Source of the DNA: Oscillospiraceae bacterium
GTDB lineage: Bacteria; Bacillota; Clostridia; Oscillospirales; Ruminococcaceae
Assembly (NCBI GenBank): GCA_040766825.1
Contig: JAXGPS010000001.1
Span: 13,411-77,410, forward strand
Direction: 5' to 3'
DNA: 64,000 nt
Position numbers and translations under genes: made by a program. Positions 3,149-59,641 of this stretch are shown here, one piece after another. The notes beneath the pieces were generated by a model, which was not told the DNA's origin, did no database searches, and saw only the letters and a program-made list of their open reading frames with translations. How positions within the stretch are numbered: the stretch's first letter is position 1; every line of letters starts with the position of its first letter.

Positions 3149-3498
3149 TTTACTTCTCCTTATAGTTTTAAGTTTGTCGTGAAATTATTGTTCGCCAAAA
3201 GTGGTTATTTTATTACATCGTTGCGCATCATATTTTAAGGAATGTTTTTGTTGTATATGCAAACTGCACAAATGTTTTTGTAATAATAAAGTACATTTCA
3301 CGATTTTGATATTTCTTCCTTAAATTTTCTTTAATTTTTAATTGATTTGTGGTAATATAATAAATGATACTATAGTTTTGTCGTGAGTGGTATTTATATA
3401 CTAATTTTATAATACAACCAGTGATTTTTTGATTACAAGATAGGGCTATATTAAATACAATTAATGCGATGTCACGGTTCGCATTGGAAGGAGCTTAT

Positions 3499-4233: not shown

Positions 4234-4255
4234 AATAAGTATTGGGGGGTTAACC

Positions 4256-4660
4256 ATGAATATCGCACTTATAGCTCACGATTCCAAAAAAGAATTGATG
4301 GTTCAATTCTGCATAGCTTATTGTGGGATTTTGAGCAGACATAATCTTTGCGCAACAGGGACTACTGGAAAGCAAGTTGCAGAGTCAACCGGACTTAGAA
4401 TCCAGCGTTATCTTAGCGGTGTTCAAGGCGGGGATCAGCAGATCAGCGCTCGCATCTCATGCAATGAAATTGACTTGTTGCTATATTTCCGTGACCCAAT
4501 CACACCAAAGCCTCATGAACCTAATGAGCTGAATTTGCTTCGTCTTTGTGACGTTCATAATATACCTCTTGCAACAAACATTGCAACTGCTGAGGCTCTA
4601 ATTCATGCGCTTGAAAGAGGAGATCTTGATTGGCGTGAGATTATCAATCCACGTGACTAA
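4256..4660 (+). CDS. mgsA: methylglyoxal synthase
   Basis: [19 protein letters not shown]…ATGTTG…[11 protein letters not shown]…[15 protein letters not shown] is the canonical MgsA motif set. The ORF is intact at 134 aa. Confidence 0.9.
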
Positions 4661-4697
4661 TCTATATAGCAGCTGCTGAAATTCTTATCGACGCACT

Positions 4698-4726
4698 TGA
4701 CAAAACTACATTTATGTAGTAAAATC
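4698..4726 (+). promoter_or_regulatory. sigma-A-type promoter for the T-box leader
   Basis: TTGACA, a 17-bp spacer, then TAAAAT. Confidence 0.45.
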
Positions 4727-4732
4727 ACCTTA

Positions 4733-4984
4733 ATATATTATCTGCTTTGAAAAGTAGAGTACCCTTTTTTTAATTCGCAAAGAGAATGACGGGTGTTTCA
4801 ACTGAAACTCTTCTGTGACCGTCACGGCTTATTATTGGTGAAGGACACCTTGGAGCTTTTGTACGATTAAGTACAAACGTTATTTCACGTTACGAAATTT
4901 AAGAGCAGTTATTTGCTGAATCAGGGTGGTACCACGGCTAATCTTGTCGTCCCTTACATTTTGTGTAAGAGGACGGCTTTTTAT
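4733..4984 (+). promoter_or_regulatory. T-box leader (tRNA-sensing riboswitch) controlling the methyltransferase-hisS-aspS unit
   Basis: The conserved T-box sequence AATCAGGGTGGTACCACGG is at 4919-4937 and carries the UGGU antiterminator bulge. The terminator hairpin cgtccctta…taagaggacg plus a T-run lies at 4946-4984. Upstream there is a GA-motif/AGTAGAG stem-I region. Confidence 0.65.
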
Positions 4985-5003
4985 TTTCAGAAAGGATTTT
5001 ACT

Positions 5004-5799
5004 ATGTCAAAAAATATAGATAATTCTACACGTTTCACTGGTTTTAGTGAACTTTATGACGGCTCACGTCCGACATTTGACGATTTCCCGATTGTTCTTC
5101 TTCAAAAGTATTTGAAAAGTGAAATCGACGTTATCGCCGATTTCGGCTGTGGGACAGGTCTTTCAACGGAAGTGCTGTCCAAACACTGCCGTTCTGTAAT
5201 CGGAGTTGAACCTAGTGAAGATATGCTTGAAATTGCCAAGTCTAAGGGGATTTCAAACGCTACTTTCTTGCATGAATATTCGCATTCTACAAGCATTCCT
5301 AGTGACTCTGTTGACTTGGTTATATGCTCTCAATCTTTTCACTGGATGGAGCCTAAGTCTACATTAGCGGAAGTGAACCGTATTCTCAAAAAGGGCGGAA
5401 TATTTGCCATTGACTATGACAGGACACCTTTGCTCGGAATTGAGTGAACTTAAGTATGCTAATTTATTCTCCCATTCGTTAAATGGTGCGAAGATAATCT
5501 TGCAAATTTAAAGGACACTTTCAGACGCTTCAGCAAAGATGAACACCTGAAAAACACATAACAGAGCGGGTATTTTGAAGTATTCTCGTGAAGTGGTTTT
5601 CCATAAGCAAACAGCTTTCAACGCTGAACAGCTCATCGGACTTGCAATTAGCAGTGGCGGTATTCAGAATATCCTTAAAAAACGCCCTGACCTCATTGAG
5701 CGCAGACTTAATGAGTTTGCCGATGCTGTCCATCATGACTTTGAGGATAAGGAAATCGACATTTATCTGTTTTATAGAATGAGATTTGGAATTAAGTAA
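5004..5799 (+). CDS. class I SAM-dependent methyltransferase (one frameshift between 5447 and 5575)
   Basis: Motif I is DFGCGTGLST and the protein starts MSKNID. The C-terminal part (…LIGLAISSGGIQNILKKRPDLIERRLNEFADAV…) is read in another frame and ends at 5799. Confidence 0.75.
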
Positions 5800-5818
5800 C
5801 TGAAAGGAATTCAAAAAT

Positions 5819-7127
5819 ATGGCACTTTTAACACAACGACCTAAGGGACTCAAGACGTAGTCCCTTCTGAAAGTTACAAGTGGCAAACTGTTGAAAAAGC
5901 TTGCTGCTGAAACTGCTGAAAAAATACGGATTTCGTGAAATACGCTTTCCGACTTTTGAACATACTGAACTTTTCACCCGCTCAGTTGGCGATACAACTG
6001 ACGTTGTTCAAAAAGAAATGTACACATTCACCGACAAGGGCGACCGTTCAATCACTCTAAGACCTGGGGACTGCCGGCACTGTTCGTGCCATGCTTGAAA
6101 ATGGGCTTCTTAATGAGCGTCTGCCACAAAAAGTGTTCTACTTCCCTTCCTGCTTTAGATATGAAAAGCCACAAGCCGGCAGACTTCGTGAGTTCCACCA
6201 GTTCGGCTGCGAAATGTTCGGCAGTGCTTCCCCTTGTGCAGATGCTGACGTTATCGCTCTTGCGAAAACTTTTATTGATAGAATTGGACTTAAGGACGTT
6301 AAGCTTTACATTAATTCTATCGGCTGTCCGACTTGCAGAAAGGAATATCACGACGCTCTCCGCAAATATTTTGAAGAACGTAAGGGCGAACTTTGCGAAA
6401 CCTGTCTTGGAAGATTAGGGAAAAATCCTATGCGCATTCTCGACTGTAAGAGCCCTGTTTGCTCTGAAATTGCGAAAGATGCGCCGATTATCCTTGATTA
6501 TCTTTGTGAGGAATGCGATCTGCATCACTTCCTGTACATAACCTCAATGCAATGAACATTGAGTTTGAAATTAACCCTAAAATCGTAAGGGGACTTGATT
6601 ACTACACAAAGACTGTTTTTGAGTTTATAACAACCTCCATTGGTGCGCAAGGCACTGTTTGTGGCGGTGGACGTTATGACGGACTTATCGAGCAACTCGG
6701 TGGTAAGCCACTCCCTGCTCTTGGTTTTGCGATGGGAATTGAAAGACTTATTCTTACTATGGAAAATCAGGGCTGCGATTTTATATACCTGCTAAGAAGT
6801 GCGACCTTTATATCGCATCTATGGGCGAGGCTGCTCTTTCTCGTGCAATTGTTCTTACAAAGGCTTTTGCGTGATGAGGGATTTTTGGGTGGAATACGAC
6901 GTTATGGGTAGAGGGCTTAAGCCTCAGATGAATATGCTGATAAGCTAAATTCTCAATTTGTACTTGTGCTTGGTGAGACTGAACTTGAAAGCGGCAACGC
7001 AAACCTCAAGAACATGACTACCGGTACTCAGACGCCTATCACTCTTGGAGATGGATTTGTAGAACAATTCTCTAATATTTCCGTTTCAAATATGTTCAGT
7101 GGCGTACTTGAGGATTTTAATATTTAA
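5819..7127 (+). pseudogene. hisS: histidine--tRNA ligase HisS, at least 4 frame disruptions
   Basis: MALLTQRPKG|[17 protein letters not shown]|…[47 protein letters not shown]…FPSCFRYEKPQAGRLREFHQFG…[12 protein letters not shown]…GGGRYDGL… are HisS segments spread over all three frames. The end, …SGVLEDFNI*, is at 7127. Confidence 0.85.
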
Positions 7128-7167
7128 TCTAAACTTGGAGGAAAAATAATGGCAATCAATCAAAGGA

Positions 7168-8930
7168 ATGAAACGCACCCATTACTGCGGCAAAGTCGAG
7201 GAATTGGCAATGTCGTAACAGTAGGTGGTTTTGTTCAGAAAATACGTGACCTTGGCAACCTTATATTTATAGACCTTCGTGACTCAACAGGAATTGTTCA
7301 GCTTGCTTTCAACGACACGACTTCTCGTGAAATCTTTGAAAAAGCTTCCTCTTGTCATAGCGAATACGTCCTTATGGCAACGGGTACAGTTTGCGCAAGA
7401 GAGAGCGTAAATGCTGAAATTTCCACCGGAAGTGTTGAAATCATGGTAACTGAGCTGCGCATTCTTGCAAAGGCTCAAACGCCTCCTTTTGAAATCACAA
7501 ATGAAACTAAGGTTAACGAAAATCTACGACTAAAGCACCGTTACCTTGACTTGCGCAGAGCGCCACTTCAGCAAAATATAATCAAGCGCCATCATATTGC
7601 AAGAGTAACTCGTGAATATTTCTATGAAAACGGCTTTATCGAAATCGAAACACCTATGCTGATTAAATCAACTCCTGAGGGCGCTCGTGACTATCTTGTG
7701 CCATCAAGAGTTCATAAGGGCAACTTCTACGCTCTCCACAATCACCTCAAATTTACAAGCAACTTCTCAGTGGTTTCTGGCTATGACAGATATATTCAGC
7801 TTGCAGATGTTTCCGTGATGAGGACTTACGTGCTGACAGACAGCCCGAATTTACTCAAATCGACTTAGAGATGGCTTTTTGTTGACATTGATGATGTTCT
7901 TGAAATGATTGAGGGCTATATTCACCGTCTTTTCAAAGATGTAATGAATATTGAACTTGCGCAAAAGCTTCCAAGACTTACATTTACTGACGCAATGAAC
8001 CGCTATGGCTCGGACAAGCCTGACACTCGTTTTGAAATGGAAATTCAAGATATTTCCTCTCTTGTTAAGGACTGTGGATTTGGAGTTTTCACCTCTGCAA
8101 TTGAGGCTGGAGGTAGTGTTCGCTGTATCGTTGCTAAAAACGCTGCTGCTACTCTCACTCGTAAGGAAATCGACAAGCTAACTGAAATGGTCCGTGGAAT
8201 TGGCGCTAAAGGACTTGCTTACGTTAGATGGGTGGACGATGCACCTAGCTGTTCTTTTGGCAAGTTCATGGGCGAGGGCGAACTTGATGCTATCCTTAAT
8301 GCTACTAACTGCGAAAAGGGTGACGTTATGCTTATCGTTGCCGATAAAAACAGCGTTACATTGCCTGTTCTTGGTGCTTTGCGTCTTAAAGTTGCAAAAC
8401 AGCTTGACATTATTCCTGAGGGTTGGAACTTCCTCTGGATTACAGAAATGCCATTCTTTGAATGGGACGAAGATAATCAAAAGTGGCTTGCTATGCACCA
8501 CCCGTTCACAATGCCTATGGAAGAATGTCTTGAATATTTGGATACTGAACCGGGTAAGGTTCGTGCTAAGGCTTATGACCTTGTTCTTAACGGTATTGAG
8601 CTTTCAAGTGGCTCAATCCGTATTACAGACTACGAACTTCAGCAGAAAATGTTTGAGGCACTCGGTCTTGAGGCTGAAGAAATTGAGGCTAAATTCGGTT
8701 TCTTAGTTGATGCTTATAAGTACGGCGCTCCTCCTCATGGTGGTGCTGGAATTGGTCTTGACCGTCTTGCGATGTTGCTATGCGGTGAGGAAAGTTTACG
8801 TGATGTTACTGCATTCCCTAAAATGCAGAACGCTTCAGAACTTATGTCCTCCTGCCCTGCTACTGTGGACGATGAAAGCCTTGAAGTTCTAGGAATAAGC
8901 ATCGTTCCTGAAGAAAAAACCGAAGACTAA
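7168..8930 (+). pseudogene. aspS: aspartate--tRNA ligase AspS, about 3 frameshifts
   Basis: The true start, MKRTHYCGKVEELAMS, is in a different frame from the track ORF. It continues …LIFIDLRDSTGIVQ…FYALHNHLKF…RYIQLA|[25 protein letters not shown]|…GAPPHGGAGIGLDRLAMLL…. Confidence 0.85.
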
Positions 8931-8956
8931 ATTTCTAAGCTTGTTACGGAGGCCTT

Positions 8957-9760
8957 ATGTACATAGATTTTCACACGCATGGTTTTGCTGATAAAATCGC
9001 TGAAAAAGCCATTGCCGCTCTTGAGGCTAACAGCGGTTTTCCTGCACTTACGGACGGAACTATTTCTGATTTAAAAAGGATACTTCTGTGAGGACGGAGT
9101 TGACAAGGGCGTTTTACTGCCGATTGCGACAAAACCAACTCAACAAACAATAATTAACAACCTCTCAGCAGAACAAAACCCGATGAACTCATATGTTTTG
9201 GCAGCGTTCACCCCGATGCTGAGGACGCTTTAGATGAGCTTAACAGAATAAAATCTCTCGGTCTGAAGGGTGTGAAATTCCATCCGGATTATCAGGAATT
9301 CTTCATCAATGATGAGAAAATGCACCCTATATATGAGCGTTGTCAAGAACTAGGATTAATCGTAGTTTTTCATGCGGGGTATGATCCTCTTCACCAGACT
9401 TAATCCACGCACAGCCTCCCGAATCGGAAAAGGTCGCAAGGAAGTTCCCTAACTTAAAAATCGTTCTTGCCCATCTCGGCGGAATGATGCAGTTCGATTT
9501 AGTGGAAAAGCACCTTGTCGGACTTAGGAATGTGTGGCTTGATACTGGATTTCTTGCCCCTCAACACGAGGACGCTCGAGCATATTGAGCAGTCTCAGCT
9601 TGAACGCATTATCAAAAATCACGGCGCTGACTGTGTTATGTTTGGTAGCGACTTGCCGTGGCAGAGGCCTATTCACGGTATCCAGCAAATCCACAACCTA
9701 AATTAAGCGATAACGAAAAAGAGCAGATTTTCCACAAGACAGCAGAAGATCTACTTGAAT
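8957..9760 (+). pseudogene. amidohydrolase-family (TIM-barrel metal-dependent hydrolase) protein, multiple frameshifts
   Basis: It starts MYIDFHTHGF. Segments …GLKGVKFHPDYQEF…, …KIVLAHLGGMMQF… and …VMFGSDLPWQ… lie in three frames. The C-terminal segment LSDNEKEQIFHKTAEDLLEF runs into the terminator hairpin. Confidence 0.6.
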
Positions 9761-9769
9761 TTAAAAAAC

Positions 9770-9812
9770 ACCGTACAAAGAGCGTTTATAGCTTTTGTAC
9801 GGTGTTTTTTAG
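9770..9812. terminator. intrinsic terminator hairpin (bidirectional)
   Basis: Hairpin caccgtacaaa…tttgtacggtg followed by a T-run. It lies between the convergent ends of the amidohydrolase and peptidase genes. Confidence 0.55.
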
Positions 9813-17097: not shown

Positions 17098-18178
17098 TTA
17101 AGCGTTTTCAGCTTCAAACTTCTTCATGAATTCTACAAGCTTTTCTACGCCCTCGATTGGCATTGCGTTGTAGATAGATGCTCTCATACCGCCAACTGAA
17201 CGGTGTCCCTTAAGGTTTTCAAAACCAGCAGCCTTTGCTTCCTTAACGAACTTAGCATCAAGCTCATCGTTTCCTGTTACGAAAGGTACGTTCATAAGTG
17301 AACGGTCTTCCTTAACAACTGTGCCCTTGAACATATTTGAGGAATCAAGGAAGTTGTAGAGAACAGCAGCCTTCTTTTCGTTGTAAGCCTTCATAGCCTC
17401 AAGTCCGCCCATCTTCTTGATCCACTTGAATACCTTGCCGCAAATGTAAATACCATATGCAGGAGGTGTGTTATACATAGAACCGTTGTCGCTGTGTGTC
17501 TTATACTTAAGCATTGTTGGTGTGCCAGGAAGTGTGTCATCAGTGATAAGGTCTTCCCTAACGATTGCAATAACTACACCAGCAGGGCCGATATTCTTCT
17601 GAACACCGCCGTATACGATTGCGTACTTAGAAACATCAATTGGCTCAGAAAGGAAGCATGACGAAACGTCAGCAACAAGATCCTTGCCCTTTGTGTTAGG
17701 AAGTTCATTGAACTTTGTACCGTAAATTGTGTTGTTTTGACAGATGTAAACATAGTCTGCATCTTCGCTGATTGAAGATCAGAACAATCAGGTATGTATG
17801 AGAAAGTCTTGTCAGCACTTGATGCAATTGCATTAGCCTTTCCGTAAAGCTGTGCTTCTGCGTAAGCTTTCTTTGCCCACATACCAGTAATGATGTAGTC
17901 AGCAACCTTATTCTTCATAAGATTCAGTGAATCATTTCAAATTGCTGTGAAGCGCCGCCCTGAAGGAAAAGAACCTTGTAGTTTTCAGTGATATTCATAA
18001 GCTCTCTAAGATCCTGTTCAGCTGCATTGATGATTTCCTCATATGCTTTTGAACGGTGTGACATTTCCATAACGGACATTCCTGTGCCTTTGTAATCAAG
18101 CATTTCTGCTGCTGCCTCATTAAGTACTTCCTCTGGGAGTACTGCAGGACCTGCACTAAAATTATAAACTCTGCTCAT
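17098..18178 (-). pseudogene. serC: phosphoserine aminotransferase SerC, at least 3 frameshifts
   Basis: The N-terminus [19 protein letters not shown], the middle …KAYAEAQLYGK…, and the C-terminus …FKGHRSVGGMRASIYNAMP… are in three frames. Confidence 0.85.
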
Positions 18179-19193: not shown

Positions 19194-20802
19194 ATGGGAG
19201 CAATTATTTATCTAACCCTTACTCAACTCAAAAATAGACTTTTGGGTATGTTTAGAACCAAAAGAGGCATCATTCTCTTCGTTTGCCTGATTTTATTTAT
19301 TGCATTTATGGTATTCGCCTCTGTCACGGCTACTCAAGTTGACGTTGATCCTTCTGTGGCTTTGGATGATGTGGAAGATTTTCGTTTTCCTGCAACCTCA
19401 GTTCTAACCTTTTCTCATGGGCTAATGCTGTTGACTTTTCTGGCAACTGTGTTTTCCGGGTTTGTTTCAGGCGGCTCAATGTTTTCAATGCAGGAAGTGA
19501 ACTTGATGTTCACCTCCCCTATTCGTTCTAACACCGTGCTTTTTTACGGAATTATAAGGCAGCTTGGCGTTTCTGCTCTTGCTGGTGTTTACTTCGCTTT
19601 CCAAATTCCTAATCTTATAAGCATCTCCGATTTAAGCCTGTTCTCTATGATATTTCTAATTTTCGGTTATATATTAACGCTTTTAGCAAGCTCTTTGTTA
19701 GGTATGCTTATATATTTGGCTATTGATGGAGAGGAAAAACGACGTTTTATAGCAAAATTTATTTTCGGCGCTTATATTGTTGCTATTATTGCAATCCTCG
19801 GCTTCAAAGCACTTAATAGTGCTGAAATGCTGCCGACATTATTAGCTTCCGGCTCATCAGATGTTATGCTTTTCTTACCTTTCACGGGCTGGGTAACGGC
19901 TGGTGTTCTAGGTATTCACACCGGCAATATTCTAATGGCTGCGCTTGGATTTGGTGCTTGTTTAGTCGCTGTTGTGGGGCTAGCTATTGCAACATACAAC
20001 ATTCATAGCGACTACTACGAGGACGTTATGGCTACTGCCGAAATTAAATTCACTGTTGCTACTGCTGTTAATCAAGGCGCAATGGTAGAGGCAACTCCTA
20101 AAAAGGTTAAGGTTGGGGAAACCGGACTCGGCAAAGGGTTTGGTGCAAACTCAATTTTCTATAAAATCAACTTGGAAAACAGACGTGCAAAAACTCAAAT
20201 TCTTTCAACTATGCAAATCATATCTCTCATCATTTCTGCTATTGTTGCTTTTGCCATTTTCAAAGCAGAACCCGATGCAGACTTCGCTGTACTGATGTCG
20301 TTTATGCTTGGAGCGTATATACAAATTTTCGCCGTTTCTGCTGCACGTTGGGCTAGAGAGCTTATGTACCATACCATCTATGATTCCGGACAGTGCTTTT
20401 AAAAAGTTACTCCACTGCATAAGGGAAGCTATTCCATCAGCAATTGCAGAAAGTGTGGCTATGGCAGTAATTCTTGGCGTAATGCTAAAACTTAGCCCTC
20501 TGCTTATGATTGGGATTTTCGTCGCTAAATTCAGTTTCTCGATGCTTATTGTCGGAGCGAACTTATTCTGTGAAAGAGTTTTCGGGTTTATTCATTCCAA
20601 GCTTATCCTTGTTATGTTATACATGATTACAATTTTTGTTTCGGCAATTCCACCACTATTAATTGCGATATTTGCTTCAGCTTTCTTAGAGCTTGAAATG
20701 TATTTTGGGTTGATTATTTTCGGTGCAGTGTCACTGCTTATAACTCTTTTGTACGTATTCATTGCCAGAAATGTTCTTGAGTATCCGGAAATTAATTCGT
20801 AA
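19194..20802 (+). CDS. large polytopic ABC exporter permease (putative ABC-exporter family), one frameshift near 20390
   Basis: A highly hydrophobic protein of about 535 aa with multiple TM segments. It directly follows the ATPase. The C-terminal portion (20308-20802) is in another frame. Confidence 0.6.
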
Positions 20803-25367: not shown

Positions 25368-26039
25368 ATGAGCCGAATTCTTATTGTTGATGACGAGGAG
25401 AGCATTCGCAACGTTGTGCGTGAATATGCCGAATACGAAGGTTATGAAATCACCGAAGCTGAAAACGGCAGAGAGGCTGTTGAGGCTTGCCGTCGCAGCG
25501 ACTTTGACTTAATTATTATGGATATTATGATGCCAAAGCTCGATGGTTTTTCTGCTTGCAAGGAAATTCGTCAGATAAAGCAGATACCTGTTATCATGCT
25601 TTCTGCTCGTGGTGAGGAATACGACAAGCTTTTTGGCTTTGAAATGGGTATTGATGACTATGTTGTAAAGCCTTTTTCCCCGAAAGAACTAATGGCAAGA
25701 ATTAAAGTCGTTATTAAGCGTAACAGCTCTAGCCATGAGGAAACCTCGTCGCTGTTTTTCGAGGGGCTTGAAGTTAATATCCCCGGCAGAGAGGTTATTG
25801 TTGACGGTGTTAAGGCATCAATGACACCTAAGGAATATGATCTGCTTTTCTACTTAATTTCAAACAAAAACATCGCTCTTACAAGGGATAAGCTTTTAGA
25901 AAAAGTATGGGGATACGATTTCTTCGGTGACGACAGGACGGTTGACACTCATATAAAAATGCTCCGTACCAGCCTTGGTCCATACCGTAAATTCATCGTT
26001 ACATTAAGAGGAATGGGGTATAAATTTGAAGCGGAGTAA
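25368..26039 (+). CDS. OmpR-family response regulator
   Basis: The receiver domain carries DD…D54…K. The winged-helix C-terminus is …LTPKEYDLLFYLISNKNIALTRDKLLEKVWGYDF…TVDTHIKMLRT…. RBS GGAGGA. Confidence 0.9.
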   Translation: MSRILIVDDEESIRNVVREYAEYEGYEITEAENGREAVEACRRSDFDLIIMDIMMPKLDGFSACKEIRQIKQIPVIMLSARGEEYDKLFGFEMGIDDYVVKPFSPKELMARIKVVIKRNSSSHEETSSLFFEGLEVNIPGREVIVDGVKASMTPKEYDLLFYLISNKNIALTRDKLLEKVWGYDFFGDDRTVDTHIKMLRTSLGPYRKFIVTLRGMGYKFEAE

Positions 26040-27506
26040 TCAAGCCCACGCAACAAGTCTGCGTTATACAATTTGGATATACTTCATGTTCTTTATCACA
26101 ATTGTTATTGTGCTTTTGTGGCTGTTTCAGGTGGTTTTGCTCCCTACTTACTACAAAAACATGAAAACGCAAAGCATCATTAAAGTTGCTATGGCAATAG
26201 CTCGTGATGCCGGAACAGAAAATTTTAACGCCAGCCTGAAAAGCCTCGCCTATGAAAATAGTATGTGCATTGAAATCATTGATAAGTACGGACGTTCAGT
26301 TTGTTCTGAGGATATGATGGGCGGTAACTGCCTGCTCCACGGTGCAAACAGTCTTGCTCTTAACGGCTATATGGCAGAGCTTAACGCTAAAGATGACGGC
26401 ACTATATACTACAACGTGCATAACGAATTGTACAACAACCAAACCTTGCTTTTCGGTTTGCGACTCGGCACTAAGGAAAGTGTTTCGGGATATTTGTTTA
26501 TAAATACCTCGCTTGAGCCGTTGGAGTCTACTGTTAAAATTATTAATGAACAGCTGCTTTGGATTTCAATAATCCTCATTGCGATAAGTGCGATAATCTC
26601 CTTTTTCGTTGCAAGGCAAATATCCCACCCAATTACTAAAATCACACAGTCTGCTAAAAAGCTCGGTGAGGGTGAGTATGGAGTAAAGTTCGAGGGTAGT
26701 GGGTATGTTGAAGTTGAAACCCTTGCAGATACCCTTAACTACGCATCTGGCGAAATTTCAAAGGTTGACTCGCTAAGACGTGACCTTATCTCAAACATCT
26801 CCCACGATTTAAGGACACCTCTCACAATAGTTAAATCATACGCTGAAATGATTGTGACCTTTCGGGTGATAATCCTGTTAAACGTGAACAGCATATTCGT
26901 GTGATTATCTCCGAATCGGATAGGCTTGCCGCTTTAGTAAACGACATTCTTGATGTTTCCAAAATGGAAAGCGGAAATGAGGAAATTAACCTCACTCAAT
27001 TCGATATATGCAACAAAATGTATGCTGTTCTTGATAGGTATAAAATCTTCTCTGAACAGCAGGATTACAAATTTATTTACAGTCCCGACGAAGAATGCAC
27101 AGTTAGTGCCGATGTAATTAAGATTGAGCAAGTCATATACAACCTTATAAACAACGCAATTAACTACACCGGTGAAGACAGAATAATATATATCAAGCAG
27201 ATAAACAAAGAAAAAACCGTGCGTATTGAAGTTACTGATACAGGTTCGGGAATTGAGGAGGAACTCCTCCCTGTTATCTTTGATAGGTATTATCGTGCTG
27301 AAAAGAGTAAACGTGAGGTTATCGGAACCGGTCTTGGTCTTTCAATTGTAAAGGGCGTTCTGAAACTTCATAACTTCCCTTTCGGTGTCCAAAGCAAACT
27401 CGGACATGGAAGTACATTTTGGTTTGAAATAACTAAATACCAACCACCAACCAACAAAAACTCACTCGGTAGCAAAATTGCTATCGCCCCAAACAAGAGC
27501 GAATAA
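26026..27506 (+). CDS. sensor histidine kinase (one frameshift near 26855)
   Basis: Two TM segments flank an extracytoplasmic domain. The H-box ISHDLRTPLT is followed by the frame change. The ATPase N, G1 and G2 boxes are …NLINNAINYT…, …VTDTGSGI… and …GTGLGLSIV…. Confidence 0.8.
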
Positions 27507-33560: not shown

Positions 33561-33820
33561 TTGCCTCGCTCCTTTTTTAGTAAATATTCAGAATGTAAAC
33601 TGAATTTACATTCATTATATCTTATTCTTCATAGAATGTCAATATAGATTTCAAATTATTTATGATTTCTTTATCTTTTCTTTATGGTTCACCACCAAAA
33701 AACCTATTAAAAATAAATTTTGAATATGGTATTGCATTTTGAAAACGTATACGGTATAATATAGGTAAATGAAATTTACTTAAATGTTTGAAAATGTATT
33801 TTAAAGAAGGGAGATTATTT

Positions 33821-34080
33821 ATGAATTCATCTGATTTAGGGAAAATTATCAAGAATGCTCGACTATCCAAGAAAATGACGCAAAATGACGTTGTCGGCAC
33901 GTTTATCACAAGAAATATGTTGACCAAATTGAAAAGCTTGGCGTTGCCTGCTCCGTCGATTAAGACGCTGGTATTTGACAAGTGTGCTGGATCTTTACTC
34001 ACTTTGCAGCTCTCAGATGAGCCTGCAATGCCACAAATTGACTTGCTTTGCAAGACAAAGAAAGGATTTTGCTAACGGTG
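33821..34080 (+). pseudogene. XRE-like HTH regulator remnant
   Basis: It starts MNSSDLGKIIKNARLSKKMTQNDVVG…ITRNM, which is an HTH_3-like start. Downstream sequence has lost frame continuity. Confidence 0.35.
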
Positions 34081-34377
34081 ATTTCCTTGATGCAGTGAAG
34101 AGCTAATCTTTTAGATGAGCGCGCTTTTGATGAGAAGTGTTCCATTCTCTCTCGTGCGTATCTGCAGCTCTCCTACTCTGAGGGGATGACACTAAGGCTG
34201 TAGTATGCTAAAAATTCCGCCGAATACGCTGACAAGGGCTTTATTCAAACCCTACTGTTAAATAAACTTTAGATTCAGCTTGCAAAACTGCTTTAAAAAA
34301 TTAGTGATTACTACTCAAGTTAGGAAGAAAAAATTTAATGAAAGAGTTATTTTGAAAACGTATAAGGAGATGATTGG

Positions 34378-34800
34378 AATAATGTTTGTTTGTCACGGCA
34401 ATATCTGCCGCTCTCAGCTGGCAAGATTCGTAATGCGTGATATGATTGAAAAAATGGACTTTTTCTGATAGGATTTCCGTCTGTTCTCCGCCACATCAAC
34501 CGAAGAAATGGAAATCCCGTTTCACCCCGGCACAAGACGTAAGCTTAATGAGGTGAATATTTCCAGTAGTTGGAAAAACCTTGCCGTGCAATTGTAACCC
34601 GCTCGGATTACGATAAAGTACGATTATTTCATCGATTGTTCATGGAATATTGATAATAGCAAAATTCTTAAGCCAGCGTCCCTAAAAACGCGAAATTTAC
34701 CGCCTGCTTGATTTTACAGATAAGTCGGGGGAAATTGCCGATCCTTATTCTCAGGGGATTTTGCAGGCGCACTTATAAGGATATATGCTGGTTGCTCTGC
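34378..34800 (+). pseudogene. low-molecular-weight protein-tyrosine phosphatase / ArsC-like remnant, multiple frameshifts
   Basis: The N-terminal P-loop is MIGIMFVCHGNICRS (CX5R). The C-terminal DPY region (…DFTDKSGEIADPYSQG…) is found in other frames. Confidence 0.5.
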
Positions 34801-34846
34801 ACTTCTTCTAAAAATTAAAGAAAATGTATAGTCGTGTAAATAAAAA

Positions 34847-34881
34847 ATGCTATTCAAGTTAAGCCTTGAATAGCATTTTTC
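34847..34881. terminator. bidirectional intrinsic terminator
   Basis: atgctattcaag…cttgaatagcat followed by T5. The arms match the hairpin at 31411-31440. Confidence 0.6.
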
Positions 34882-34882
34882 T

Positions 34883-35265
34883 TTAAAATTCAGCAATATT
34901 TGCTTTTTTAGTACGGTGATACTCGTGGATACATTCACTACCACTAATAAAAGCGATAATGGCAATATTCAAAGCAGTCGCACCGACTAGTAGGTATAAA
35001 TTCATACCTAGCACAATCCCTTGATTTTGGATAACGTGCATTACTAAGCCGCCAAACATCAAAGAAAAGTCATTCAAAGTGAAAACAATCATACCGAGTC
35101 CGGCGTGAAAATCCACCTTAACTATAAACAGCGCAACCAACTGATTCCTGGACAATCCATATGTATTCCAGCAAGTAGATAAGAAATACTAACCCAAGTC
35201 CTAAAATTGCAACTCCAGCGGCGAACATTCCCTTTTTAGCATTCTTCTTTCTTTCCTCAACAGTT
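34883..35265 (-). pseudogene. small hydrophobic membrane protein (frameshifted)
   Basis: …KKGMFAAGVAILGLGLVFLIYLLEYIW… is in one frame. The C-terminus …LVALFIVKVDFHAGLGMIVFTLNDFSLMFGGLVMHVIQNQ… is in another. Confidence 0.3.
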
Positions 35266-35496
35266 TTAGGTACATCTCAGCTCTTTTTCTGGTCTACGTT
35301 GCTAGTTTGACTAAGGCTTGCCTAGTAACTTCAACAATACCTGCTTTTTTGTGCCTCTCAACGTTTGAATGATCATCTCGTCTAACGTAAGTCGCTTGAT
35401 AGTTGCTATTCATATCGTCAGCACAACGCTTGCAGGTCATCCAAGGCCTTTTTCTACGTGCTGCTTAACGTAAACCGTTGGTTCTTCAAGCAAAAG

Positions 35497-35730
35497 CCCC
35501 TCAGGCTGAAGTTCGAAATATCGTCTTCTTCGCTCCTTTGGCTAACCGTATACGTGTCTGTGTCATCAAGCACAATTCCCGACGCACTAGGTACGAAATG
35601 TCATCTTCTGCGCTCCTCTGAGTAACTGTATATGTATCTGTATCCTCAAGTGAAATCCAGACGCACTGAGATTCCCAAATGTAATCCTCTGCACTCTCTT
35701 AGTGGCGGTGTAGTCAATCTGACTAACCCA
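35497..35730 (-). repeat. three degenerate ~78-bp tandem repeats (relic of a repeat-protein gene)
   Basis: Two full copies, about 75% identical (35497-35574 and 35575-35652), and a partial third copy. On the minus strand they encode SASG(I/F)(V/H)L(D/E)DTDTYTV(S/T)QRS(E/A)EDDIS. Frames are broken between copies. Confidence 0.55.
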
Positions 35731-36045
35731 TCTAATCCGTTGCAGAAGTAATATTCTTATCCGAAGTACTCCCCAACTCTAAAAATTATTTCTGCTCATC
35801 TATCAATTATTAACCCCTATACAAAATAGCTGGAAAATAGAGTCATCTCCGCCGACGTGGAGGTTGACGTGGATTTTCCAGTAATGTTCTAGTAAAGATT
35901 AATATTGATATTATACAACTATTATAGCATGGAAATGTCTAAATATCAACAACTTTACCAAAAATGGAACTACAAAAGTCGCAATTGTTATATTTTGAAC
36001 AATTGCGACAATGTAATTTTTATTTGGTATTGTCGGCTTTTTCTA

Positions 36046-37313
<1,268 letters not shown>

Positions 37314-37449
37314 GCATTTTTCTACCTTTTCTTTACTTTGAAAGTCAACGTCTTATGTAATATTACCTTAATTATAATATCACGTTCACTTGTATAAGTA
37401 AAATTAATCTTTTTTATACAGGGTATAAGTTATTCTAATGTTAATATTT

Positions 37450-38322
37450 GCCTTTATTATGAAGCTCGCAGTTTTTCTTTTACTAGCGGCTTGTCCTCTT
37501 GATAAGTAACTCCGAACCACTCGCCAGTTGGAAATTACATCAATTGAAATTTCGCCGTCCTCCATCATTTCGCTAATCATGACAGGGAGGGGATATTCCT
37601 CCCTTAATTCGCTATCTGATAGGGAGCGCTAAGAACTCACTAAGCCTTTGTTCTGCTCTTTCAAATATCCATGGGAGCAATCCCAAAATTCGATGAAACA
37701 AGCGAATTCGGGTTTTAGCTCCACTCTCCGAGTATCTCGCCGTTATTTGAAACGCTCACTTTATAGGTTTCTGTGATGTTTTAAGCTTGCCGTCTTCATT
37801 AGCGGAACAAAGTCCTCGTGTAACCTGACCGTTTTAGGGAAACGGTATTTTCAAGGCAGTATGCCACCATTGAAGCACTGTTTTTTGCGTCCATTTTGCA
37901 AAGAGAGGCTTCCATTTTTTCAAATGCATCACGTCCGTAAAAATCATCTGCATTAATGACTTGCAAACGGCTCATTTGCCTTTTTTGCTGAAAGTATAGC
38001 GTGAACAGTGCCGTAAAGCTTCTCTGCCGATATGGGCGCTTTATAAAAGCTTGGTAAAGATGCAAACTCCTGAATTTGCGAATTCTACCTGTATTTTATC
38101 ACCAACTCTCTGCTGAACCATTGCACTAAAACTCTCAAGCATATCACGCTTAATTACAAAAACAACCTTTGTAAAGCCTGCACGAATTGCATCAGAAATT
38201 GAGTATTCCATCAATATTTCGCCGTTCGGTCCAAGCTCTGCTGTTTGCTTTCTTTCAGCAGTGCTATATCGTGAGCCCATTCCGGCTGCCATAATTAATA
38301 ATATCATTTTATCGCCTTTCAT
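37450..38322 (-). pseudogene. sugar-phosphate nucleotidyltransferase-family protein, at least 2 frameshifts
   Basis: MILLIMAAGMGSRY…KQ…LGPNGE is an NTP-transferase G-x-G-x-R motif. Downstream segments are in other frames. Confidence 0.45.
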
Positions 38323-39426: not shown

Positions 39427-40024
39427 ATGTTTAACTCTATTCTCGAAAATTCTGTGTCAGGACTATCAATGACTAGTGCACTTATCTGCACAGCCGTATC
39501 CCTTGCACTTGGCGTAATTATCGCACTTACTTATATGTTCACCGGCAAATGTACAAAGGGCTTTGCTGTAACGCTAGTAGTTCTCCCTGCTGTTGTGCAG
39601 GTTGTTATCATGCTTGTAAATGGCAATCTCGGGATAGGTGTTGCTATTGTGGGAGCGTTTAACCTCGTTCGTTACCGTTCAGTACCCGGCACATCTAAAG
39701 AAATCTGCATAATCTTCTTTGCAATGGCTGCCGGTCTTGCAACGGTATCGGATACATCACATACGCTGTTATGTTCACTATAATAATATGTGCAATTTAC
39801 TTTGTTTTAATGAAAACCGATTTGCTGAAAGCAAGTCTGCTGAAAAGCAACTACGCATAGTAATTCCTGAAAGTTTAGACTACAACGGTGCTTTTGATGA
39901 CATTTTTGAGAAGTATACTTCCACTTGCTCCCTTGAGCGTGTTAAGACAACAAACCTCGGCAGTATGTTTGATTTAACATATATAGTTAAACTAAAAAAG
40001 ACATCAGCGAAAAGGAACTTATAG
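39427..40024 (+). CDS. DUF4956-family membrane protein (frameshifted near 39770)
   Basis: Three TM segments are followed by the C-terminal soluble domain …RIVIPESLDYNGAFDDIFEKYTSTCSLERVKTTNLGSMFDLTYIVKL, read in another frame. Confidence 0.6.
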
Positions 40025-47634: not shown

Positions 47635-48856
47635 ATGAGAAAAATGGCGAGAATTACAGCATCTTTGCTAATAGGTATTAACCATGACAGTTTGCGGTAT
47701 AACTGGATATTATATGTTCAAATTGCCTGACAACTACTATGTGCAAGGTGACAGCGATTTAGTGCTTTCTTGTAATTTTGAAATTACAGCTCAAAACATG
47801 GGGAGTACTGCACAAGCGCTTTCGACACAAACTCAACCTCTATCAAAGGAGGTTGAACTTCGGCTTTTTGGTATAATTCCCATAAAAACCGTAAATATTC
47901 AATCAGTTGACAAAACAGTGCTTGTTCCGGGAGGAAATCCCTTTGGCATACTCTTGCAAACGGAGGGTGTAATGGTAGTAAGCCTTGGAGAGGTCGATAC
48001 TAGCGACGGTCTTATCTGCCCGGCTTCTGATGCAGGTATCAAAACAGGCGATATTGTCCTCAAAATTAACAATAAGAAAATCAGTTCGAACTCTGATATT
48101 CAAGAAAAAATTGCATCATCTGACGGAGAAGCTGTAACAGTTCTTCTTCGCCGTGATGAAAAGGAAATCAGTTTGCAAATGACTCCTGCATACTCTGTAA
48201 ACGCCGGCTCATACAAGGCTGGAATGTACGTTCGTGATAGTTGTGCCGGTATCGGCACCGTTACCTTTTACGATCCTGCTACGGGCATTTTCGGAGGTCT
48301 TGGACACCCTGTTTGTGACGTTGACACTGGAAATGTCATGACAATTTCAAGCGGTGAAGTCGTGGGCGTTTCAATTAATGGAGTAAATAAAGGCTCTGCT
48401 GGAAAGCCGGGGGAATTAGTCGGAAGCTTTACTTCAAGAAAAACCCTCGGAAGTCTTAATCTTAATGAATTTTGCGGGCTTTTCGGACGTTTAAGTACCT
48501 CGCTTAACTATAACTCAGCAATTCCAATGGGACTGAAACAGGAGGTAAATCTAGGAGAAGCCACTATCCTCTCAACCGTTGACGGCTCAACTCCAAAAGA
48601 ATACTCAATTGAGATTGAGAAGATAGACTACCGAGATAAAGACAACTCCAAAAACTTCGTCATACGAATAACCGATGCTGAGCTTATAGAGCTTACTGGT
48701 GGTATTGTGCAAGGTATGAGCGGAAGTCCAATTATTCAGAATGGACAACTTGTTGGTGCTGTCACTCATGTTTTTGTCAACGACCCTACTCGTGGTTACG
48801 GTATCTTCTGTGAAACTATGTATGAGAACTCAAAGAATGTAAATGCGCTTTCTTAA
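47635..48856 (+). CDS. spoIVB: stage IV sporulation protein B (S55 signalling serine peptidase), N-terminal frameshift near 47685
   Basis: The signal/TM start MRKMARITASLLIGIN| is in a different frame from the body. The PDZ domain is …GIKTGDIVLKINNKKI…. The catalytic region is …GSPIIQNGQLVGAVTHVFVNDPTRGYGIF… with the Ser in GSP. Confidence 0.85.
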
Positions 48857-48992
48857 CTAATATAAAAAACTCCGTTCTTCATTAGAAATTATTTGCATTT
48901 TTAAAATTCTGCTCAAAAATAGTAAAAACCGTTGCAAAATTTTACTAAAGAATATATAATATAAGTGTTCTATTTTTGTTTAAATATCGTTA

Positions 48993-49014: not shown

Positions 49015-49151
49015 GGCGATATATTAAGTGTCAACATATAAACTGTATTGGATTTTTTTGTAAAAATATTTGTAAAAACTATTGATTTTTTGGAAAAGCT
49101 ATGGTAATATATGTAAGTAGTCAATTACACAATCTTTAGGAGGAACTAAAA

Positions 49152-49924
49152 ATGAACAACAAAACAAAGGTACTTATAACAGATAACAGCGCAGAATACG
49201 GAATACTACTTGCAAACAAGCTACGTAATTTAGACGTATTTGCTATTACTTGCGCAAAAGACGGAATAGCAATTCTTTAATCTATTAAGAATGAATGCCC
49301 TGATGTAGTAATTATTGATGCTGTGCTTCCACTTTCTGATGCTTCTGATATTATCCGTAAAGCTTCTGGCACGGTTTACAAAAAGCCTAAATTTATTGTC
49401 GTATCCGCTTATGCAAGCCCTATAGTAGAGCAAAGAGCAATGGAGGCTGGCGCTGAGTTGTTTGTAACCAAGCCTTTTGATATGGATCTTATGTGCCAAC
49501 GCTTGCTCGCTTTAACCCCTGCTACCTCTACATATTCCCAGCAAGAGTCCCCTAGAAGCGACATGGATCTAAAAGTGGTAGTAACGGACATTATCCACCA
49601 AATCGGAGTCCCTGCTCATATAAAAGGATACCATTATTTAAGAGAGGCTATCATGCTTTCTGTAAAAGATGATGAAATGCTTGAGAGCGTAACAAAGCTT
49701 CTCTACCCAACAGTAGCGAAAGCTTTCTCAACAACACCTTCAAGAGTGGAAAGAGCAATACGTCATGCAATTGAAGTCGCATGGGATAGAGGCGACATTG
49801 ATACTCTAAACTCTTTCTTCGGATATACTGTAAATACTGGAAAGGGTAAGCCTACAAACTCCGAATTTATCGCCCTTATAACTGATAAGCTTAGACTTCA
49901 GTATAGCCACGCTCTTATGGCTTA
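49152..49924 (+). CDS. spo0A: sporulation master regulator Spo0A, interrupted by an in-frame TAA at 49278-49280 (codon 43)
   Basis: The receiver domain starts [12 protein letters not shown]…. Spo0A-specific C-terminal motifs are [34 protein letters not shown] and FGYTV…[11 protein letters not shown]. The stop is …[19 protein letters not shown]. The gene is adjacent to spoIVB as in other sporeformers. Confidence 0.9.
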
Positions 49925-50058
49925 AATTTGCCCCTTATATCAATTTTGCTATACAGATCTAAATTGATATATTACATTACATTCCCCCTTAAGGCAATAC
50001 TTCACAACGCACGCTTGATGGTTCTGTGCGGTATTGCCTTTCCCTTATCAAGGTTTAT

Positions 50059-50107
50059 AATGAAGAAAGCTGCAGCTTGAGCTTTTCAAGCTGCAGCTTT
50101 CTTCATT
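50059..50107. other. 49-bp near-perfect palindrome (21-bp arms)
   Basis: aatgaagaaagctgcagcttg a gctttt caagctgcagctttcttcatt. Confidence 0.6.
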
Positions 50108-51774: not shown

Positions 51775-53385
51775 TTACAAAGTTTTTTCTCTTGGATCTA
51801 TCGGACATTCTATGAGGTAAGGTGTCTTTGCCTCAATCATTCTTTGTATTGCCGATGATATATCCAATGGATTTTCAACCCTTTCAGACGGAATTCCGTA
51901 AGCTTTTGCAAGTGCAATAAAGTCTGGATTGCCATCTAAGGTTGTCGCTACGATATTATCGTTGTATTTATTGGTTTGAAGTTCACGCACCATTCCAAGA
52001 CGGCCGTTATTCATCACAACCATTTTAACAGGGATGTTGTGCTGTACCATTGTTGCAAGCTCCATAAACTGCATTTGGAAAGAGCCGTCACCGAAAATAG
52101 CGACTACTTCTGAATCAGGGTTTGCAAGCTTTGCCCCCTCAGCAGCAGGACAAGAATACCCCATTGTTCCCATTCCGCCCGAGGTAAGGAAACGCCCACC
52201 AGCCTTTACTTTAAAGTAGTTTGAAGTCCAAATTTGATTTTGCCCAACGTCAGCAACAACAACGGTGCCTTCTGGCATCTTCTCGGAAAGTTCACGAATG
52301 AATTTCTTAGGGTTTATTCTGTCGCCATAGTGTTCGAGCTTTTCTTCGCCCTTTTCTATGTTTAGCTGATTAATCCATTCTTCACAATCGAACTTGTCGC
52401 ACTTTTCAGTAAGCTGTTCAAGGATAATTTCTGCGCTGCCTACAATCGGAATATGCGCTTCTGCGTTCTTACCAATTTCGGCAGGGTCAATATCAATATG
52501 TATAATCTTCGTTGTTTCAGCTAGGAATGTCGGTGCAGAAACTGCTCTATCCCCACTCTTGCTCCAGCAAGAAGGATTACGTCACTCTTGTTCATTGCGT
52601 AATTCGCAACCTTGACGCCGTGCATACCAATCATTCCATAGTAAATAGGGTTGTCCGTTTGAGTAACTGAAATACCCATCATTGTTGTAACCATTGGAAT
52701 GCCTGTTTTGCTTGAAATGCTCTAAGCTCATCTTCAGCGTGTGCACCAAAAATTCCGCCGCCTGCGCAAATAAGTGGTCTTTTCGCTTCTTTAAGGGCAG
52801 CAGCAGCACGTTTAACCTGCAACATATTCCCCTTTGACGAAGGCTTATATGAGCGAATGTCAACAGTCTTTGGATAGTCAAACTCAATCATTTCGTTTTG
52901 AACATCCATCGGAACATCAACAAGTACCGGTCCCGGACGTCCACTTCCGGCAATATAAAACGCCTCATGCATGATTTTAGGTAATTCCTTCGGATCACGT
53001 ACAAGGTAGCTGTGCTTAACAAACGGCTCGCAAGCACCTGTCATGTCAGCCTCTTGGAAAACGTCACGCCCGATTTGATCACGGTTAACCTGTCCCGTGA
53101 TAACAACAAGCGGAATAAGATCTGCATAAGCAGTTGCAATTGATGTTATAAGGTTAAGAGCCCCCGGTCCCGATGTCGCTATACAAACAGCAGGCTTGCC
53201 TGTTATTCTTGCGTATCCATTAGCGGCATGACCTGCATTCTGTTCATGTCTAACAAGAATGTGACGGACATCACTTTAGCTAACGAATCATAAAATGGGC
53301 ATATTGCAGCGCCCGGATAGCCAAAGATGACCTTGATTCCCTCAATTTCTAACGACTTAACCATAGCTTCGCTTGCCTTTATCAT
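51775..53385 (-). pseudogene. ilvB: acetolactate synthase large subunit IlvB, at least 3 frameshifts
   Basis: The N-terminus MIKASEAMVKSLEIEGIKVIFGYPGAAICPFYDSL, the middle …GPVLVDVPMDVQ…, and the C-terminal TPP region …GGMGTMGYSCPAAEGAKLA…GDGSFQM… are in different frames. Confidence 0.85.
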
Positions 53386-53475: not shown

Positions 53476-53645
53476 ATCTTTTGCTCACTAATCCCCAAAA
53501 AAAAGACGTTTTTTAGTGCTTTATCGTGTTAAAAGATGTGCATTTTGTGCATAAAGCGCCTAATTAAGTCTATCCCAAGCTATTATCAGCAATTCTTTTT
53601 TGATTTTTTTGAAAAATTTAACTTAAAATAAATGCTGCATTATCT

Positions 53646-53674
53646 TGATTTTTGTAAAAAAAACTTCTATAATG
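53646..53674 (+). promoter_or_regulatory. putative sigma-A promoter of the substrate-binding protein gene
   Basis: TTGATT, a 17-bp spacer, then TATAAT. A leader hairpin cagcga…tcgctg follows. Confidence 0.4.
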
Positions 53675-53729
53675 AATAATGTGTATGAATATCAGCGATA
53701 CCAAAGTCGCTGCTTGAAAGGACTTATAA

Positions 53730-54680
53730 TGAAAAAGAAAAACAAAATTGCTGTCTTTGCAGTGATGTTGATGATTATATCAACGTTTTTTACTGCTTGT
53801 GAGGAAATCTCCTCTGCGCCTGTTATTACAGAGCCGGCGGACACGAATTACCCCGTTTCAATAGGCTCATTAGAGTTTGAAACTGCGCCACAATCGGTTG
53901 TTTCGCTATCCCCTGCGATAACGAAATTATTTTTGAACTTGGTTACAACTATTCACTTGTCGGAGTGGGTGAGTATTGTGATTTTCCAGAGCAAGCTCTA
54001 AAACTCAACGTTGCAGGAAGTGCTGCAAACCCAGATATTGACGAAATTATTAAGCTCTCACCCGAACTTCTCATTTCGCAAAGTCCTATTGCCAAAAAAG
54101 ATATTGTATCCCTTGAAGATGCCGGCATTAGGGTTTTAATCCTTGGCACACCAAAGTCATATGATGAACTCAAACAAAATTATATGGATATTTCCGCACT
54201 TTTTGGCGGCAACGATAACGCCGAAACTAAAGTAAATGCTGCGTTTGAGGCTCTTGATGAGCAAATTGAACTTGCTAAAGGTGCAGATATTTCATTTGTA
54301 TACATAATGTCCTACGGCACGGCTGCTGCAACGCCTGACACACTTGCCGGAAGTATCCTTTCAATTTTCGGGAAGAATATTGCCAAAAAATACACCGATT
54401 GCGAAATGCCGGTTGAGGAGATTATCGCTGCTGATCCTGAGTATCTTTCCTCGCTCTACCAAGAAATGCGTTAAATCTGCCTGATGGTTTGAAGGACCTT
54501 CCAGCAGTTCAAGAGGGAAGGATAGTTAGCATGTTCAAGATTTATTCGACCGTCCTACTACAAGGATTGTTGAGAGCCTTATAAACGCAAACGTGGAACT
54601 CGGCTTGTTTGACGAGCAGAAGAAACCACCTCGGAAGAACAACAAACTCCTGATGAAACTATCGAAACCCTCAGATGAAT
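53730..54680 (+). pseudogene. cobalamin/Fe-siderophore-type ABC substrate-binding lipoprotein (BtuF/FecB-like), at least 2 frameshifts
   Basis: The lipobox is MKKKNKIAVFAVMLMIISTFFTAC. Segments …SLSPAIT|EIIFELGYNYSLVGVGEYCDF…LISQSP… and the C-terminus …PAVQEGRIV|… are in three frames. Confidence 0.6.
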
Positions 54681-58930: not shown

Positions 58931-59641
58931 ATGAAGGATAAGAATTCAGCATTCGGAAAAATTTGGAGTGGAAAAGGTTTTATTCTTACAGTGTGCATCT
59001 GTGCAGCTGTTGTCGGAATTGTAGGCTACGTTGCCTATTCTGCAACTGCGAACAGACTTAATAACCAACTTGAAGCTCTCAGCGAGTCAACCACGGCAAG
59101 CCAGTGGGGATATGAGGACGTTGGAATTAATCAAACTGATGTACCATTAGTAGAAGTAACCACCGCTGCCCAGACCGAAGTAACCACTGAGGCTACCTCT
59201 GCTGACAAGCCTGTCGCCGTAGCCGTTCAGCCATTTATTCGCCCTCTTGTAGGAGATATTATCAATGAGTTCAGCAACGGGGAGCTTGTTAAGTCAAAGA
59301 CTCTCAATGTTTGGCAAACTCATGATGGCGTTGATATTGCCGGGGCAAACGGCGACAAGGTTAAGTCTATGACATCTGGCACAGTTACTAAGATTTATGA
59401 AGATCCTCTATGGGGCGTTTGCGTTATTATCGACCACGGCAACGGCTACGAGGGGCATTACAGAAATCTTGGCAAGGTTGTAGTTGTGAAGCTAGACGAG
59501 CAAGTGAGTGCCGGCACTGTAATCGGAACTATCGGCGACACTGCCGAATGTGAGTTGGGAGAGGTTTCTCACCTGCACTTCGGCGTTAAGCAAAACGATC
59601 AGTGGGTAAATCCGTTAACCGTAATCACTCCTGCCGAATAA
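58931..59641 (+). CDS. M23-family metallopeptidase with N-terminal membrane anchor
   Basis: A TM segment (FILTVCICAAVVGIVGYVAY) is followed by the LytM domain motifs HDGVDIAG and HLHFGV. Confidence 0.8.
   Translation: MKDKNSAFGKIWSGKGFILTVCICAAVVGIVGYVAYSATANRLNNQLEALSESTTASQWGYEDVGINQTDVPLVEVTTAAQTEVTTEATSADKPVAVAVQPFIRPLVGDIINEFSNGELVKSKTLNVWQTHDGVDIAGANGDKVKSMTSGTVTKIYEDPLWGVCVIIDHGNGYEGHYRNLGKVVVVKLDEQVSAGTVIGTIGDTAECELGEVSHLHFGVKQNDQWVNPLTVITPAE

Follow-up and report, generated by a model that had tools for sequence, protein, structure and literature searches.

The question raised by this locus is whether the bacterium that carries it has lost the ability to sporulate. In the window, which is the whole analysed stretch of 64,000 nucleotides, spo0A contains an in-frame TAA and the adjacent spoIVB is out of frame at its 5' end. 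The TAA was found in the sequence at the predicted place, so that the assembled spo0A frame is interrupted (Table 1). The gene starts with an ATG preceded by a Shine-Dalgarno sequence, AGGAGG at 49138-49143 as read from the sequence, and beyond codon 43 its frame stays open for 214 further codons up to the natural TAA. The bridged 257-residue product is Spo0A from end to end, with a best database match of E=1.5e-100. When codon 43 was taken as Glu, the product scored 270.1 bits with the TIGR02875 equivalog model against a cut-off of 200, and the match covered positions 2-259 of 262. Since the product matches Spo0A throughout, the locus holds a broken gene and not a chance open reading frame. 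The Spo0A_C domain was recognised by PF08769 with 155.1 bits over its full length (1-104 of 104), the highest score among the 10 sequences compared, and it matched the 1LQ1 chain with E=1.3e-46. Wherever a C-terminal column is invariant in 20 relatives, the product has the same residue. The original prediction had called the frame otherwise perfect, with all C-terminal motifs of Spo0A. The motifs are indeed all present; the frame is less than perfect in the receiver domain, where the acidic pocket reads TDNS instead of the [GA]DD[ST] of the relatives.

The stop had been placed between the phospho-acceptor region and the rest of the receiver domain. This position was slightly imprecise. The stop lies upstream of D56, between the acidic pocket (D11/N12) and D56, and the product would therefore be 42 residues long and lack the phosphorylation site. 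Its description as a substitution-type lesion was borne out, as it is the sole clean internal stop among the 21 genes examined at base level. The proposed comparison of codon 43 with orthologues was carried out and gave Asp in 90 and Glu in 30 of 120 sequences. Because the relatives have Asp or Glu in this column, a change of GAA to TAA by one G-to-T substitution is the simplest origin, and Glu (GAA) is likely the ancestral state. The residues on both sides of the TAA agree with the family consensus, and thus exactly one base is affected. A window-wide scan for stops flanked by long open stretches in the same frame gave no second convincing case; the stops inside genes at 6058, 7866 and 52582 fall within frameshifted stretches. 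A sigma-70-like promoter match was noted upstream of spo0A, and the number of such matches near the gene is no higher than in shuffled sequence.

Table 1. Features of the spoIVB-spo0A locus and of the split genes in the window (window positions).
Feature	Position	Strand	Remarks
spoIVB 5' segment	47635..47683	+	start and first half of the signal-anchor helix; frame 1; ATG 47635 with AAGAGG Shine-Dalgarno
spoIVB +1 insertion site	47680..47683	+	one extra base within AACC; frameshift-aware alignment puts FS+1 at about 47674
spoIVB main ORF	47684..48856	+	PDZ and S55 peptidase; 390 codons, next frame; repaired product matches TIGR02860
sigma-70-like promoter match	48932..48960	+	TTGCAA-17-TATAAT; consensus match only
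spo0A	49152..49925	+	257 codons and natural TAA stop at 49923-49925
Receiver (REC) domain	49170..49505	+	residues 7-118; Pfam Response_reg 48.7 bits
Codon 12, AAC (Asn)	49185..49187	+	second acidic-pocket Asp in 120/120 relatives and in B. subtilis Spo0A
In-frame TAA	49278..49280	+	spo0A codon 43, receiver helix alpha-2; Asp/Glu in relatives, Ser in B. subtilis
Phospho-acceptor Asp, codon 56, GAT	49317..49319	+	downstream of the stop
Spo0A_C DNA-binding domain	49581..49892	+	residues 144-247; PF08769; fully conserved; departs at 3/85 conserved columns (3/79 at columns at least 95% conserved)
Long GC-rich inverted repeat	50063..50105		between convergent spo0A and ilvC; gaagaaagctgcagcttga...tcaagctgcagctttcttc, sequence reading
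Densest error cluster	3440-9800		22 frame breaks in about 6 kb; conserved sequence regained by single-base edits
minD	3499-4235		4 frame breaks
hisS	5845-7094		8 frame breaks
aspS	7156-8915		5 frame breaks; short out-of-frame stretches between compensating shifts
Amidohydrolase-like gene	8954-9756		5 frame breaks
Stretch of short ORF fragments, 4.6 kb	33680-38320	-	three purA pieces: Adenylsucc_synt model 48-95, 104-162, 253-376
ilvB (acetolactate synthase large subunit)	51778-53382	-	four frame pieces; -1 deletions at about 52556, 52723, 53274
Further split genes	610-930, 17098-18178, 19194-20802, 26026-27506, 39427-40024, 53645-54474		consecutive Pfam-model pieces: porA POR_N fragment; serC Aminotran_5 1-77 and 237-371 with an unmatched ORF between; ABC exporter 1-395 and 396-528; histidine kinase cut within HisKA; DUF4956; Peripla_BP_2

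The predicted frameshift at the 5' end of spoIVB was confirmed by frameshift-aware alignment, which found one +1 insertion that splits the first 15-16 codons from the main ORF. The ATG opens a 31-codon frame (MRKMARITASLLIGI...), and MRKMARITASLLIGI aligns with the MKK...hydrophobic N-termini of the relatives. When one base is taken out of AACC, the sequence MRKMARITASLLIGI-TMTVCGITGYY is obtained, with the relatives' length up to GYY (26 residues) and their C-x-I-T-G-Y-Y register. The repaired SpoIVB scored 402.3 bits with TIGR02860 against a cut-off of 305.25 and covered positions 6-400 of 402. It has a normal signal anchor, and its N-terminus fits that of the relatives in length and in the GYY motif. 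The active-site motifs GMSGSP and GLGHP are also readable in the translation. The frameshift had been mentioned next to the spo0A lesion. It cannot count as corroboration of it, as the same type of single-base indel breaks hisS, aspS, minD, ilvB, purA and serC. The spoIVB shift is very probably an assembly indel artefact.

The extent of such breaks was measured by searching the ORFs of 80 related loci against the window with tblastn, followed by frameshift-aware protein-to-DNA alignment of 21 genes (about 20 kb). The base-level count refers to these 21 aligned genes; serC, purA and the 33.7-38.3 kb stretch were read from ORF and Pfam pieces. The 21 homologue-supported genes contain 27 internal frame breaks: eight in hisS, five each in aspS and the amidohydrolase-like gene, four in minD, three in ilvB, and one each in an RNase H gene and spoIVB. 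Ten are insertions and 17 are deletions, and they are strongly clustered, with 18 of the 27 between 5 and 10 kb. Pfam scans added porA, serC (3 pieces), an ABC exporter, a histidine kinase, purA (at least 3 pieces), DUF4956 and Peripla_BP_2 to the split genes. The 4.6 kb stretch of short ORF fragments with the purA pieces is probably another unpolished error cluster; a fragment at 38041-38322 is a weak match to a nucleotidyl-transferase N-terminus. The ilvN and ilvC genes beside the broken ilvB are intact. After repair, AspS, MinD, IlvB and HisS have intact motifs, with motif 2 of AspS identical to that of a relative, and the repaired AspS departs at only 13 of the 317 columns with a conservation of at least 98% (120 homologues). 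Essential single-copy genes could not truly be broken five to eight times, and their motifs are intact once repaired; therefore, the breaks are artefacts rather than decay. The lesion in spoIVB is of the type found in these essential single-copy genes of the same contig, whose repaired frames are conserved.

The error profile fits a noisy, unevenly polished long-read consensus. The link of the frame breaks to homopolymers is weak (30% versus 18% at random positions, p=0.11). A homopolymer-only chemistry (454 or Ion Torrent), which would make a substitution error very unlikely, is not supported on this basis, as only 30% of the breaks lie near runs of at least four. A miscall at a methylation motif was also considered, since GAA followed by TC forms GANTC. 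GANTC occurs 86 times in the window against 188 expected (2.2-fold, z=-7), and its depletion is as strong in the clean parts as in the error-dense ones and has its counterpart in an excess of GANTT/AANTC, not of TAATC. An even depletion that is balanced by transition neighbours indicates biological avoidance and is uninformative on the TAA; the methylation-motif miscall was therefore rejected. Other motifs are depleted as well, namely GTCTC/GAGAC (3 versus 27 and 2 versus 17.5 expected) and CCWGG (13 versus 36). From the motif counts, the depletion looks like restriction-site avoidance with HinfI-type and BsmAI-type specificities.

The account that we propose is that the window holds an ordinary spoIVB-spo0A sporulation pair of an undescribed Ruminococcus-like (Oscillospiraceae) bacterium, which looks functional and is represented here by a draft assembly in which many errors remain. 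The frameshift of spoIVB would be one spurious base within AACC, and the spo0A TAA would be a single-base change from GAA (Glu), introduced when this base was miscalled in the consensus of these noisy data. We infer the miscall with a confidence that is about evenly balanced. Noisy long-read assemblies carry substitution errors besides gene-fragmenting indels, so that mismatches are to be expected in such data, and the candidates retained for one Nanopore assembly comprised 900 read-supported substitutions and 561 indels (PMC12007338). If there are about 50-60 indels per window, if the mismatch to indel ratio is assumed to be 0.2-1 and if 3.6-4% of substitutions produce stops, then 0.3-2 error-made nonsense codons would be expected per window under these assumed ratios, and one was seen. 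On the other hand, the surroundings of spo0A are comparatively clean: the roughly 6.5 kb of coding sequence between 45 and 52 kb hold a single indel. The chance of an error-made stop in spo0A specifically would be about 0.2-0.4%. A real spo0A null allele has a similar prior, which counts against preferring a miscall. Also, no substitution-type stop was found in the densest error cluster (22 indels, 3.4-9.8 kb), which suggests that mismatches are rarer than indels here. The clean stretch of 45-52 kb contains only two lesions, and both are in sporulation genes.

It is therefore quite possible, at somewhat below an even chance, that the stop is a real and very recent spo0A null allele, produced by a G-to-T change in the clone or population that was sequenced, for instance on laboratory passage, where there is no selection for sporulation. 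Translation would then end after 42 residues and the initiation of sporulation would be abolished, with the spoIVB shift still being an assembly error. Several features fit such an event. The window has no second clean nonsense codon, the stop lies in a relatively clean region, it is of the substitution type unlike the dominant error class, and the DNA-binding domain and SpoIVB are undecayed, as expected for an allele acquired recently in culture. Sporulation loss on passage and stray lesions in core genes are documented in a survey, which reports one or two nonsense or frameshift lesions per genome among the core sporulation genes, part of them genuine and part of them due to sequencing errors (10.1101/2022.02.25.481979). 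The same survey, however, warns that such lesions are often sequencing errors (10.1101/2022.02.25.481979). The base accuracy of this assembly is demonstrably poor, and no independent genome copy was found in the collections searched (best contig matches among those listed). A miscall and a recent null allele are both ordinary events, and only the reads can decide between them.

In order to compare constraint across the locus, a departure was counted wherever a residue differs at a column that is at least 95% conserved in the relatives. The Spo0A DNA-binding domain has 3 departures in 79 columns, the repaired SpoIVB 2 in 62, and AspS of the same genome 15 in 349, so that all three lie at about 3-4%. 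The receiver domain behaves differently, with 11 of 41 (Fisher p=4e-6 against the pooled 20 of 490 of AspS, the Spo0A C-terminal domain and SpoIVB) and 17 of 54 at columns at least 90% conserved. It is about 49% identical to the relatives; at this divergence of the C-terminal domain about 64% would be usual, and the receiver is thus about 15 percentage points more divergent than expected. The Response_reg score is below the 51-60 bits of nine relatives. The TDNS pocket is unique among 121 sequences, and the canonical quintet of receiver residues is incomplete: D11, D56, S85 and K107 are kept and the second acidic residue is Asn12. The replacements in the receiver are more radical than those of the relatives (mean BLOSUM62 0.05 versus 0.64 +/- 0.25). 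Compared with non-synonymous changes of one base drawn at random (-0.33), they are still slightly more conservative (p about 0.05).

Two technical sources of the odd receiver residues were rejected. Compensated frameshifts were absent from the spo0A alignment, the receiver has no indels, and the alternative frames contain stops. Sequencing mismatches would not explain 27% departures in the receiver against about 3-4% in the C-terminal domain, SpoIVB and AspS, and several of the changes need two bases. The same asymmetry between receiver and C-terminal domain is seen in intact relatives (14/1 in P0066 and 13/1 in P0109). Moreover, this Spo0A is nearly equidistant (58-64%) from all 120 relatives, with AspS reaching 78% to its best match, and part of the receiver excess is thus an outgroup effect. 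We read the receiver as a case of lineage-specific, partly relaxed evolution, which would be no proof of function loss. Considering the partly relaxed constraint and the unique D12N, a real lesion in this domain would not be out of character.

The divergence of the receiver leads to a more radical possibility, which we consider improbable. The receiver may be degenerating, with the DNA-binding domain made by internal initiation and active independently of phosphorylation. In B. subtilis, removal of the Spo0A receiver relieves the inhibition of the C-terminal domain. The excess of departures, the unique acidic pocket, the radical replacements and the fully conserved C-terminal domain would all be compatible with such a protein. 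However, a convincing Shine-Dalgarno sequence was found at none of the in-frame starts downstream of the stop, which are GTG 49323 and the ATG codons 97, 111, 115 and 137. The domain is still recognised as Response_reg and is free of indels, its replacements remain slightly more conservative than neutral, intact relatives have the same asymmetry, and the equidistance from the 120 relatives accounts for part of the excess. If it were true, the receiver would have been lost as a phospho-switch, in line with a little-noticed tendency of Ruminococcus-type Spo0A proteins, in which Glu replaces the phospho-acceptor in 10 of 120.

These ten intact Ruminococcus/Oscillospiraceae sequences are P0005, P0007, P0013, P0025, P0030, P0043, P0063, P0066, P0077 and P0107, and one Spo0A with a Glu phospho-acceptor comes from the cultured Ruminococcus sp. 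Marseille-P6503. The conserved receiver Lys is replaced by Arg in 21 of the 120 relatives' Spo0A. The clade tolerates variation in the active site, which tempers the case against the receiver. Literature searches on acidic-pocket mutants of Spo0A and on receiver-less Spo0A gave nothing usable in the collection of papers searched.

A long-standing loss of sporulation, in which spo0A and spoIVB would be decaying pseudogenes of an asporogenous lineage, is very improbable. Two adjacent sporulation genes with one lesion each and an unusually divergent receiver could be taken in its favour. Nevertheless, each gene has exactly one single-base lesion, and the elevation of departures is confined to the receiver. 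The Spo0A C-terminal domain and SpoIVB depart at the rate of the essential AspS, both repaired proteins score above their equivalog cut-offs, and nothing sets the lesion of spoIVB apart from the artefactual indels of the essential genes. To judge from these conservation data, decay of this kind is already largely refuted. Since the sporulation genes are as conserved as AspS, they were under normal purifying selection until very recently, and any real lesion at spoIVB-spo0A would be very recent. The suggestion that the stop could mark a genuinely asporogenous lineage is accordingly left without support by the departure counts. Read-through or reassignment of the TAA, by which the gene would be intact as translated and for which the otherwise open frame is the only argument, has a negligible chance and was rejected, because TAA terminates 17 of 20 well-supported genes of the window, including spo0A and spoIVB, and the genes examined contain no further TAA in frame.

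Some neighbouring features of the window were also recorded. The inverted repeat between spo0A and ilvC is likely a bidirectional terminator, as judged from its sequence. A T-box leader (Rfam RF00230, 94.1 bits versus a gathering score of 93) is located at 4738-4957 on the plus strand upstream of hisS-aspS, and a 173-residue ORF with a methyltransferase domain lies at 4926-5447 between this leader and hisS. An intact ORF at 58931-59641 on the plus strand encodes an M23 peptidase of 236 residues. The peptidase may act in engulfment during sporulation or be an ordinary hydrolase of the cell wall; its best NCBIfam match is SpoIIQ with 64.7 bits, far below the cut-off of 250.

About 40% of the bases are GC, and the closest neighbours belong to the Ruminococcus albus group and to other Oscillospiraceae MAGs. 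The database searches gave no genus-level relative among the matches listed, with AspS 78% and Spo0A 64% identical to their best matches; for IlvC, the closest homologue within the 80 fetched loci has 82% identity. No exact protein match was obtained for IlvC, the 200-residue Spo0A fragment, the 390-residue SpoIVB ORF or PckA. In a genome-contig scan with the full Spo0A, the best locus among the matches listed was 63% identical, and in a metagenome scan with the receiver and linker the best match had 45% identity. Compared with the Spo0A proteins of the R. albus group and other Oscillospiraceae (TIGR02875 / PF00072 + PF08769), this one has the same architecture, length and spoIVB-spo0A order, shares every invariant C-terminal residue and has 85% identity in the DNA-binding domain. 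It differs from them in its overall identity of only 58-64%, its receiver identity, Asn12 and the stop at codon 43. Like atypical (aspartate-variant) receivers, it has a replacement among the five canonical active-site residues, here D12N; in contrast to them, this Spo0A keeps the phospho-acceptor Asp, the Ser/Thr and the Lys.

Both kinds of lesion have known counterparts. Uncorrected or low-coverage long-read assemblies contain, as here, dozens of clustered single-base indels that split conserved genes, including aminoacyl-tRNA synthetases. Unlike those errors, the change in spo0A is a substitution, and its surroundings are comparatively clean. The other counterpart is the spontaneous spo0A null alleles of cultured spore-formers, as a null allele acquired recently in culture would also show one early nonsense codon and no other decay. 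In contrast to them, the present case is known from sequence alone, and its host assembly is too error-prone for a single base to be taken at face value. Therefore, whether it is a long-read artefact or a classical spo0A null allele, the lesion is of a kind that is already known and is not new biology.

Neither the spo0A stop nor the spoIVB frameshift shows a loss of sporulation. The assembly is full of sequencing-type errors, even in essential genes, and asporogeny thus cannot be inferred from these lesions. Organisms are called non-sporulating on the strength of single disabling lesions in spo0A and other marker genes, a practice that is unsafe with drafts of this quality. Should the TAA prove real, it would be an ordinary one-strain null allele of spo0A, useful for reading the phenotype of the strain. 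The only elements that could lead further are the divergent receiver and the Asp-to-Glu phospho-acceptor variants in related Spo0A proteins. These receiver variants suggest, at the level of sequence comparison, that the phosphorylation control of Spo0A may be loosened in parts of the Ruminococcus clade.
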